From NCBI RefSeq assembly GCF_024502345.1, contig NZ_JALDNN010000001.1: a stretch of 64,000 nucleotides of DNA; one strand, written 5' to 3'. Both the position numbers and the translations under genes were made by a program. Positions within the stretch are counted from its first letter, which is position 1, and the number at the start of each line of letters is the position of its first letter. The notes beneath the pieces are model-generated. The model was given only the letters and a program-made list of their open reading frames with translations. It was not told the origin of the DNA and made no database searches. The stretch comes from Escherichia coli (lineage in GTDB: Bacteria > Pseudomonadota > Gammaproteobacteria > Enterobacterales > Enterobacteriaceae). Below are positions 8,694-10,432 of the stretch, one piece after another.

Positions 8694-9503
8694 ATGAAAC
8701 AATATGAAGATGGTTATAACGTGAATGGATATAGCTGGGAAAATGAAACAATTGAGTATTTGTTGAATGATAAACAACTGACAGATAATCACATACCTGA
8801 ATGGGTTAAAAAAAATGAAATTGCAGCATTCTGGTTCTGGTTAGTTATAATTAACACAGATCCCAAACTCCTTGGGGTTCGTAATGAATTAGGGTTCAAT
8901 ACAGCCATGATGGGGCTGATTCCTGCGGGGAGTATACCCATAACAACAATTCCTTCAGATCATGAAATGAGACTGGATGTTATAAGCAAATGGATTAATG
9001 CATTAATCCTTGACAATCAATCAGATTGGTTCATCTCAACAATGCATCAAAACTGGCTGCAGATCGAAAAGAGAAACGAAGCCAAATGGCTTAAAAAGAA
9101 TACAGAACAACTCGAATGGGCATGGAAATATATCAATGCACGCATCCCGCACACGTATCTTTCCTGGTTTTATCCTGTAAGTGATAACGAAAGATACATT
9201 GCTATCGTAGTTTTACTAAAAATTTTATTCCCCGCAGATACACCATACTTACAGCAGCCAAAAGTACTTCACTATGGGGTTGCCGCAAAAGAAAAATTTT
9301 TCGACAAGATGCACAATGCATTCCGAAAACAGTTTACCGACGGAAAAAAAGATAAGCGGGTACAAATCAACGTTAAAATATCATCAGATGCAAAACGTAC
9401 TCTGGACAGACTGACCAGAGAACTGAAAACAACACAACAGGCTGTCCTGGAACATCTGATTCAGAACCACAGGCTGGTGATTCAGAACCACAGACTGGAT
9501 TAA
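8694..9503 (+). CDS. Hypothetical protein, low-GC, no recognisable domain
   Basis: ATG at 8694 with GAGG 9 nt upstream (the longer ORF opens at 8616); AT-rich codon usage; 3-prime end contains a 21-bp tandem duplication and overlaps the convergent gene by 4 bp. Confidence 0.4.
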   Translation: MKQYEDGYNVNGYSWENETIEYLLNDKQLTDNHIPEWVKKNEIAAFWFWLVIINTDPKLLGVRNELGFNTAMMGLIPAGSIPITTIPSDHEMRLDVISKWINALILDNQSDWFISTMHQNWLQIEKRNEAKWLKKNTEQLEWAWKYINARIPHTYLSWFYPVSDNERYIAIVVLLKILFPADTPYLQQPKVLHYGVAAKEKFFDKMHNAFRKQFTDGKKDKRVQINVKISSDAKRTLDRLTRELKTTQQAVLEHLIQNHRLVIQNHRLD

Positions 9504-10432
9504 CTTTCACCACTTCTGCTCCTGGCGATTTTCTTCTTTTGGTAGTGTCTCCTGGCTGCGGATATCAGATACTTTTCCGTCATTTTGTTGCAGAACTCTT
9601 CAATGTAGTTAATCATTTTCTGGTGTGCTTTCAGCTTTTCTTCCCCGGGGGACGCTTTCAGATAAATGTCCTCCTTTTCCACAAGCGCATTGACAAACTC
9701 CCCTAAACATCCCTGGTTATAAAGCGACGTGAAAAACAACACATCCCCCAGTCTCTCCAGTAACTGTGGTTTATCCCCGAAATGTTTTTTTATACTTTCA
9801 AAAGGTTTTCTATTTTCCGGATCAAAAAAAACACTTAATCCCAGTCGCTTATATTCCTGGTAAAAAAGTTCAAACGTCGGGGATGCTGAACGGCAAATAA
9901 ACGAAGACTGCGCCCATGGATTAAAATCTGTGACACGCCTCCCCTCCCGCACTTCCTGTCGTGTCAGCGGTGGTTCAGCAAACCAGGCGTCCAGCTCAGC
10001 CGAATCGTTATCCCTGCTCAAAACCTCATACAAACTGCCCGTGAACGGTTGAGCCGTTTGTTTTGTTGCTTCGCCTTCTGATTGTCTGAATCCATCCACT
10101 TTTCTCCGGATATTACGCGGAATCAGCATAAAAGGCGGGACATTAAGTGATAAACGTTTACCCGTCATGCGATACCATTGACCTACCTCAACCTTAATCC
10201 GTGTATCTGACCTTAGCTCAAGTGCCATTATGCTAAGCAGGTACAGATAACGCACCGTATAACGATTAAAATGTTTCTCCGGATCAAACGATTCGGACCG
10301 TTCTCCTCTGTACACGACTCTGCTGCGCTTCAGTATTCGCAGAGTATATTTCCAGGCCGGACTTTTACAAATGGCGGTAACTCTGGCCTTATTAACAATG
10401 TCGCGTAATGCATCAATCTGTTGTGCAGTCAT
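9500..10432 (-). CDS. Hypothetical protein, unknown function
   Basis: 310-aa ORF from ATG at 10432 with GGAGG 7 nt upstream; convergent with the preceding CDS and divergent from the GTPase gene. Confidence 0.4.
   Translation of the reverse strand: MTAQQIDALRDIVNKARVTAICKSPAWKYTLRILKRSRVVYRGERSESFDPEKHFNRYTVRYLYLLSIMALELRSDTRIKVEVGQWYRMTGKRLSLNVPPFMLIPRNIRRKVDGFRQSEGEATKQTAQPFTGSLYEVLSRDNDSAELDAWFAEPPLTRQEVREGRRVTDFNPWAQSSFICRSASPTFELFYQEYKRLGLSVFFDPENRKPFESIKKHFGDKPQLLERLGDVLFFTSLYNQGCLGEFVNALVEKEDIYLKASPGEEKLKAHQKMINYIEEFCNKMTEKYLISAARRHYQKKKIARSRSGES

Follow-up and report, generated by a model that had tools for sequence, protein, structure and literature searches.

Two overlapping genes in a 64,000-nucleotide stretch of Escherichia coli DNA (contig NZ_JALDNN010000001.1; the whole stretch is referred to here as the window) encode members of two taxonomically narrow protein families from enterobacterial islands of the CP4-57/SRL-PAI type. 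We designate the plus-strand gene at 8694–9503 as A and the minus-strand gene at 9500–10432 as B. Comparison of island loci showed that the B superfamily fills one fixed island position beside a conserved sequence box and a hairpin, and that the short form of B comes with A as an obligate partner. With a probability of roughly 0.4, we infer that A and B function as a lineage-specific control cassette of these islands that resembles a phage immunity region. Few mobile elements of E. coli and Shigella are commoner than CP4-57/SRL-type islands, which carry adhesin, resistance and defence genes. Identified here are an orphan superfamily that forms a fixed part of the island backbone, a hypervariable cassette with sharp boundaries and two cis elements, and two 'hypothetical proteins' thereby become a testable model of an island control switch. 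The main features in the window are:

8140–10463: replaceable hypervariable cassette (control region of A, gene A, gene B and leader of B), delimited by blastn
8477–8505, plus strand: putative A promoter, TTGATA-N16-TATGAAT, as read from the sequence
8502–8540, plus strand: four direct GAATAG repeats with an 11-bp period (Tandem Repeats Finder), a putative operator for the ribbon-helix-helix (RHH) of A
8694–9503, plus strand: gene A, 269 amino acids, ATG at 8694, RefSeq WP_000816117.1 'hypothetical protein'
9457–9498, plus strand: 21-bp tandem duplication (Tandem Repeats Finder: period 21, 2.0 copies, 95% matches)
9500–10432, minus strand: gene B, 310 amino acids from its ATG, RefSeq WP_021538213.1 'hypothetical protein'
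10463–10514: control region upstream of B, common to the GTPase operon, consisting of a box and then an inverted repeat

A linked gene pair at one fixed island position

The coding sequences called by RefSeq match the open reading frames (ORFs) of A and B exactly. The genes converge and overlap by 4 bp at their 3′ ends, where the two stop codons share the TTAA at 9500–9503, and both have a Shine–Dalgarno sequence: GAGG at 8681–8684, 9 nt 5′ of the ATG of A, and GGAGG (complement of 10439–10443), 6 nt 5′ of the ATG of B. GC content is lower in A (0.383) than in B (0.449) or the neighbouring GTPase gene (0.534). An earlier note on this DNA had described the convergent overlap, the good Shine–Dalgarno sequences, the low GC of A and the tandem duplication at the end of A, and each of these observations is borne out. 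The duplication gives A seven extra residues (VIQNHRL) C-terminal of the RHH, and since the A homologues found elsewhere (P0072, P0075, P0076 and P0077) end in '...RLD' without them, it is truly lineage-specific. With dN/dS (the ratio of non-synonymous to synonymous substitution rates) at 0.2–0.7, both genes are under purifying selection; both are annotated as intact in 25/25 of the best-matching E. coli genomes, and of 5426 complete genomes of E. coli, 499 contain at least 80% of positions 8500–10540.

Terminator-like hairpins are enriched across 6900–10700 (9 observed, 2.7 ± 1.9 expected). Several lie inside A and antisense to it (8862–9154, minus strand) and one inside B and antisense to B (10041–10061, plus strand), at positions where transcription reading through from the convergent gene would stop.

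Genomic contexts were fetched for close and distant B homologues, and all loci were searched with hidden Markov models of the A and B families. In the window and 23 further loci, representing 12 independent lineages, a homologue of A always lies directly 3′ of B in convergent orientation, with a 4-bp overlap or a gap of 21–121 bp between them. This linkage persists though the identity of B drops to 22–29% and that of A to 18–24%; A and B are genuinely linked as a unit of two genes. Nearly all lineages with enough flanking sequence have the order GTPase (leftward), B (rightward), A (leftward), YagK/YfjJ and AlpA. At locus L015 the place of the GTPase is taken by a conjugation-like block that includes a TraG P-loop ATPase, and in L021 other genes intervene between the GTPase and B. 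The neighbours in the window, and the longer relatives of B that occupy its place in other islands, are:

6217–6948, minus strand: gene resembling YfjJ/YagK, of the inovirus Gp2 family, and the cassette's conserved neighbour on the left (RefSeq name of its equivalent; Pfam matches to YagK_YfjJ_C / REP_ORF2-G2P at related loci)
10539–11423, plus strand: YfjP-like GTPase gene (NCBIfam small-GTPase matches; RefSeq 'YfjP family GTPase'; Pfam MMR_HSR1 in related loci)
L024:5686–6816, L028:3186–4316, L029:3177–4400 and L030:3177–4400: long B forms of 376 or 407 amino acids

The GTPase gene is divergent from B and is the first gene of a conserved operon that continues with DUF932, antirestriction, RadC and CbeA/CbtA genes. 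Among the complete E. coli genomes, YfjP-type GTPase genes occur at 3636 places in 2673 of the 5426 genomes, with up to six per genome, and B-like DNA at 821 places in 742. Because B places are so much fewer, eight E. coli GTPase loci, spread down the match ranking, were inspected. In all eight, a gene of the B superfamily diverges from the GTPase gene: the B and A pair in three, and a single longer gene of 376 or 407 amino acids, in the same position and orientation, in the other five. In one of the three loci with the pair (L026), B is interrupted by an IS3 element and A is retained, which is uninformative with regard to toxicity.

The long genes are distant homologues of B. The 376-residue form matches the B profile with an hhalign probability of 97.9% (E 3.4e-13; hmmsearch E 3e-14), and the 407-residue form is also recovered by hmmsearch (E 3e-8). 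Both carry an N-terminal extension of ~45 residues with a Cys/His pattern (CxxxxC...CxxH-like) followed by a very basic linker, without a Pfam domain and without an A homologue nearby; the 376-residue form by itself accounts for 516 places in 463 genomes. One copy of the 407-residue type is frameshifted (L025).

The earlier note had placed the pair in a variable slot for accessory cargo, as in the CP4-57 island of K-12. Part of this holds, since the linked pair does lie in a segment that is swapped between near-identical islands, and the K-12 yfjJ–yfjP interval does contain rnlA-rnlB along with abpB-abpA and yfjM. The cargo interpretation is not supported: because members of one family recur at one position and in one orientation across all island lineages examined, A and B behave like backbone genes and not like interchangeable cargo. 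That note had also looked to the same slot in other genomes for grounds to reject a functional module. The pair is indeed missing from most GTPase loci (821 versus 3636 places), but the sampled loci hold a distant B homologue instead.

An indexed search found relatives of A and B only in Escherichia and other Enterobacteriaceae, and an exhaustive HMMER search recovered about 17 more full-length B homologues at 22–29% identity. GTDB species representatives yielded one locus in a pattern-limited scan and no match in another scan; as these scans gave little, the taxonomic range rests on metagenome and AFDB matches. Among 50,697 phage records there was no member of the B family, and only two of 72,556 plasmids carried one. 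Both families are taxonomically very narrow and confined to enterobacterial islands. No publication on the function of A or B was found and accession searches were empty.

Nothing significant was obtained for A, B, the long B forms or the distant homologues in Pfam, NCBIfam, PHROGs or PADLOC. The statement in the earlier note that neither protein belongs to a recognisable family was therefore correct, with the exception of a weak RHH in A.

A hypervariable cassette bounded by a conserved box

The edges of the cassette were mapped by blastn of positions 5900–12300 against seven other islands. In three islands with divergent or long-B cassettes (L031, L024 and L029), similarity is lost at 8138–8371 and returns at 10463–10469, so that the right edge falls exactly at the conserved box. 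Islands with closer alleles regain similarity earlier, at 9289 in L010 and at 9716 in L002. The flanks are 85–98% identical between islands. At the protein level, the GTPases of E. coli islands are 90–98% identical, whereas B ranges from 25 to 83% and A from 20 to 94%, and the dN/dS of the GTPase gene is 0.09–0.28 (0.56 for one near-identical pair) compared with 0.2–0.7 for A and B. The B alleles of E. coli, aligned over window positions 9503–10432, are mosaic in their N-terminus, residues ~150–180, a ~13-residue insertion near 210 and the C-terminal ~60 residues; each segment occurs in two or three types that assort independently, which points to frequent recombination inside the gene.

Upstream of B, the control region begins with the box TTTTTCACGCCCATATTACC (10463–10482), which occurs once in the window, and continues about 10–11 nt further on with the inverted repeat AACCGGAT-N7-ATCCGGTT (10492–10514). 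The box (TTCACRYCYATATTACC) with a positioned inverted repeat was identified in the window and in L012, L015, L017, L019, L021, L022 and L023. It is present upstream of B in every lineage and is near-invariant even where the proteins are only ~25% identical, and in nine of ten copies the inverted repeat keeps its position while its sequence varies by lineage. Box and hairpin stay with B in L015, which has no GTPase. By our own reading of the sequence, the box holds overlapping −10-like hexamers on the two strands (CATATT / TAATAT). The element at 10463–10514 could serve as an operator, as an oriT-like site (oriT, origin of transfer) or as a promoter followed by a hairpin in its leader.

Some loci show variations on this arrangement. 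L021 has two boxes (~3750 and ~6840), of which the copy upstream of B lacks a hairpin and the second, with a perfect 7-bp hairpin, heads a WYL-DUF4234 operon; a different, longer GTPase gene lies between them. In the K-12 yfjP leader (L033:620–710), L012 and L022, a hairpin before the GTPase Shine–Dalgarno sequence is followed by a T-run, as in an intrinsic terminator or attenuator. The hairpin in the GTPase leader of the window has no T-run.

Protein A combines a Trp-rich, all-helical N-terminal domain of ~215 residues with a predicted C-terminal RHH at residues about 222–258 (RVQINVKISSDAKRTLDRLTRELKTTQQAVLEHLI). Its AlphaFold 2 model, with a predicted local distance difference test score (pLDDT) of 67.5, is all-alpha and has an extended segment followed by helices at 231–244 and 248–257. 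Across 14 aligned homologues at 18–70% identity, no part of A is better conserved than the strand-helix-helix, and all 14 keep the pattern (R/K)VQI(N/S)xxIS-x2-A(K/R)-x2-L...TQ...(L/I)(E/D)xLI, with the order strand-helix-turn-helix. Family matches are weak: the window A gave E 0.0019 and 18.1 bits (cut-off 80) with NCBIfam RepC_IncLM, and E 0.079 and 0.27 with Pfam RepB-RCR_reg and RHH_1, respectively. The latter two families were each matched at E ≤ 0.1 by 4 of 14 A members, the best at 1.1e-3. These weak matches, together with the conserved pattern, point to a putative DNA-binding RHH at the C-terminus of A.

For the remainder of A, the top PDB sequence match of the family profile was MatP (4d8j), a weak and non-significant match (E 0.073, hhalign probability 61%) that aligns A 144–261 with MatP 12–129 across a helical bundle and RHH, with a common W-x-W-x-Y-L motif. 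Foldseek with the A model did not recover MatP or any other structural relative of the Trp-rich domain, and there was no Pfam MatP match in the A family. The stretch IAAFWFWLVII was considered as a membrane helix and rejected by eye as too short (about 11–13 residues).

The strongest indication of what A may bind comes from its own upstream region. GAATAG-N5-GAATAG occurs three times in the repeat array, with 0.22 occurrences expected for the whole window and none elsewhere, and the −10 element of the putative A promoter overlaps the first GAATAG. This promoter was not reported by a strict consensus scan; TTGATAGCATGTTTT of the promoter region is kept in L006, L027, L010 and L018. Homologues with a QIN(V/I)K-type RHH strand have related AATAGTT repeats in the same place (L006, L027, L010, L018 and L012) or, in L015, an AATAGTT-type palindrome, and those with QISAL or (L/I)(S/N)AE strands have different repeats (L002, L019 and L022), such as the TGTAATTTTA repeats that accompany L002-type A. 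The main argument that A would bind the repeats is this covariation of repeat sequence with the RHH strand. At 8457–8480, a strong Shine–Dalgarno sequence, AAGGAGG, precedes a three-codon mini-ORF (ATG AGC CGT AGT TGA) that is kept in L006 and L027, and the stop codon of which overlaps the putative −35 element of A.

Protein B is basic (pI 9.6 overall, 10.5 for the N-terminal half) and its conserved motifs include W27, LY63-64, P105-x3-RRK(109-111), GSLY(132-135) and E193, of which K111 is not retained in the 407-residue form. The predicted model is confident (pLDDT 87.7) and has no structural relative beyond the B family; the B profile likewise found no match among PDB sequences. B fits no known toxin family or fold and has no HUH, MOBH/HD, Rep_trans or tyrosine-recombinase signature or fold. 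Two specific candidates were rejected from the confident model: an iteron-binding initiator of theta replication, as the model fits no winged-helix Rep fold, and a tyrosine-recombinase-like relaxase, as it lacks such a fold.

The proposed control cassette and competing readings

In the mechanism that we favour, A would bind as a dimer of dimers to the 11-bp-phased GAATAG repeats over its own −10 element and repress its own promoter. B, with its very basic N-terminal half, would act on DNA at the conserved box; as −10-like hexamers of opposite strands overlap in the box, B could decide in which direction transcription runs, into B or into the GTPase operon. Since A and B lie tail to tail without a terminator between them, the transcript of each would have to run antisense into the other gene, and expression of the two would be negatively coupled. 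The long forms of B, with a Cys/His and basic extension in the absence of A, suggest a DNA-targeting function that is supplied in trans (by A) or in cis. Allelic divergence between conserved flanks would then keep co-resident islands from cross-regulating.

Several observations weigh against this mechanism. Every RHH match of A falls below its family threshold, and B has no recognisable DNA-binding fold. The proposed promoters have no good −35 elements and were missed by the consensus scan, the covariation of repeats and RHH extends to about eight lineages and was judged by eye, and the hairpins have z-scores of −0.45 to −3.8, are weak in several lineages and are missing from one of ten copies. 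K-12 CP4-57 has neither A, B nor the box, so that the cassette is dispensable for maintenance of a chromosomal island. Allelic diversity and raised dN/dS (0.4–0.7 for B) would also fit an arms-race gene. Each step of the mechanism was read from sequences or models, and DNA binding, regulation and an interaction between A and B are accordingly putative.

It is unlikely, but consistent with several features, that the element upstream of B is instead an oriT or replication origin, with B as an atypical nicking or loading protein and A as an RHH accessory in DNA processing for island transfer or replication. An inverted repeat, ~11 nt and a conserved box on the B-sense strand reproduce the layout of an oriT, where RHH accessory proteins are common, and the RHH of A is comparable to the oriT accessory factors TraY, MbeC and VirC2. 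B has conserved Tyr64, Tyr135 and Arg/Lys residues, the L015 pair adjoins the conjugation-like block, and the islands, in which no relaxase is recognised, do encode an inovirus Gp2-like protein, which belongs to a family of rolling-circle initiators. B itself shows none of the signatures or folds of relaxases and initiators listed above (HUH, HD, Rep_trans or tyrosine recombinase), and loses K111 in its 407-residue form. That the second box of L021 stands at the head of an operon speaks for a promoter or leader, and a hypervariable cassette beside an invariant site is ill suited to a site-specific enzyme that acts on that site.

The earlier note had proposed a two-gene defence or toxin-immunity module, and the first half of this proposal, anti-phage defence with B as effector and A as sensor or regulator in an island defence hotspot, appears improbable. 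It accords with the abpB-abpA and rnlA-rnlB genes of the K-12 yfjJ–yfjP interval, both of them defence systems, with a GC-poor and hypervariable cassette under relaxed or diversifying evolution, with a restriction-endonuclease-like gene nearby (5011–5889) and with an adjoining GTPase that is weakly similar to Eleos LeoBC (E 2.8e-7). The proposed PADLOC check was run with PADLOC-DB 2.0 and returned no families for A and B and no relevant ones for seven further A, B and long-B proteins; none of 10 A/B variants had a match, and no enzymatic or effector domain was detected in A or B. The sampled occupants of the slot are not unrelated systems; they are homologous to each other, fixed in position and orientation beside a conserved control element, confined to enterobacterial islands, absent from phages and nearly absent from plasmids. 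Position alone is a poor ground for naming defence systems.

More doubtful again is the bolder idea that the B superfamily, together with A or the fused Cys/His module, represents a new kind of DNA-acting protein that switches on, nicks or loads islands at the box and hairpin. If true, this would explain the activation and movement of 'cryptic' CP4-57/SRL-type islands, in which no machinery for transfer or replication is recognised, as well as the diverged, mutually non-interfering alleles of co-resident islands.

Least probable is the second half of the earlier proposal, a toxin–antitoxin (TA) or addiction module with B as toxin and A as autoregulating antitoxin: RHH domains are typical of type II antitoxins, A and B strictly co-occur and the islands carry other TA systems (e.g. 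CbtA/CbeA), but the pair is disfavoured because the genes are convergent in all lineages and form no co-transcribed operon, the RHH is C-terminal in a 269-residue protein, and intact long B genes, distant homologues of a B that fits no toxin family, are widespread without A (516 places in 463 genomes).

Island surroundings and comparison with known systems

Beside the YfjJ-like gene, a 292-residue ORF on the minus strand (5011–5889) has an equivalent in L029 that RefSeq names 'restriction endonuclease'; in the window it gave no NCBIfam or PADLOC match, and as a candidate for defence this ORF is more plausible than either A or B. The similarity of the YfjP-like GTPase to Eleos, a dynamin-like system, in PADLOC is limited to LeoBC over the C-terminal 100 residues and to LeoA at E 0.002. 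Between the YfjJ-like gene and the cassette lie ~1.2 kb of AT-rich DNA (6949–8140, GC 0.31–0.42) with no ORF of more than 60 amino acids, which are nonetheless 84–93% identical among islands; a 176-residue ORF present between the YfjJ-like gene and A in other islands was considered and is absent from the window. At the edges of the island (1752–2426, 3646–4125 and 18705–20336), transposase fragments of the IS21 and IS2/IS3 families lie left of the island genes, and on the right the run of conserved island genes ends ahead of a dcuS-type sensor kinase gene. The whole window contains no tRNA or tmRNA gene, and an Rfam search of 4000–19000 identified no RNA family.

Related intervals have been described in other islands. 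The Shigella SRL PAI carries orf42–45, reported as having 'no similarity', between the AlpA-like orf41 and the YfjP-like orf46 (PMC6980539); equated by position, this is the same interval as that of A and B. In a 2025 study of tmRNA-integrated Pseudomonas islands, the likely core consisted of an integrase, AlpA, an inovirus Gp2-like protein and RadC, most islands carried defence systems and one was mobilised by jumbo phages (PMC12595487). Islands of this general design are thus shown to be mobile via helpers, with core genes that have yet to be characterised.

Among known systems, the K-12 CP4-57 cargo (AbpAB, YfjM and RnlAB) lies in the same interval of the same island family as A and B, but has no homology to them and no box; AbpAB and RnlAB are also mutually unrelated, whereas the sampled occupants described here belong to one superfamily. 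Type II TA systems with RHH antitoxins (ParD, CcdA, RelB and FitA) share with A and B an RHH protein that is strictly paired and carried on a mobile element, and differ from the convergent A and B, with their large antitoxin candidate, C-terminal RHH, solo long B and lack of a toxin family. Compared with MatP, A has an extra N-terminal region of ~135 residues, and the match over the common bundle and RHH is weak.

The best, though weak, matches of the ~40 C-terminal residues of A are to plasmid RHH copy-control repressors (PF10723 RepB-RCR_reg, IncFII RepA2/CopB PRK13702, IncL/M RepC and CopG-type PF01402). Like A, these have short repeats over their own promoters, putative in the case of A. 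They are proteins of 45–90 residues with little beyond the RHH, whereas A has 269 residues and a ~215-residue Trp-rich domain, and no replication gene is co-transcribed with A.

With the immunity regions of temperate phages, such as lambdoid cI/cro, the likeness would be functional only, as A and B are convergent and have no homology to a known repressor/antirepressor pair. Like the cassette, these regions are sharply bounded and divergent, encode a DNA-binding protein (putatively so for A) with lineage-specific repeats, and lie between conserved flanks beside a conserved bidirectional control region.

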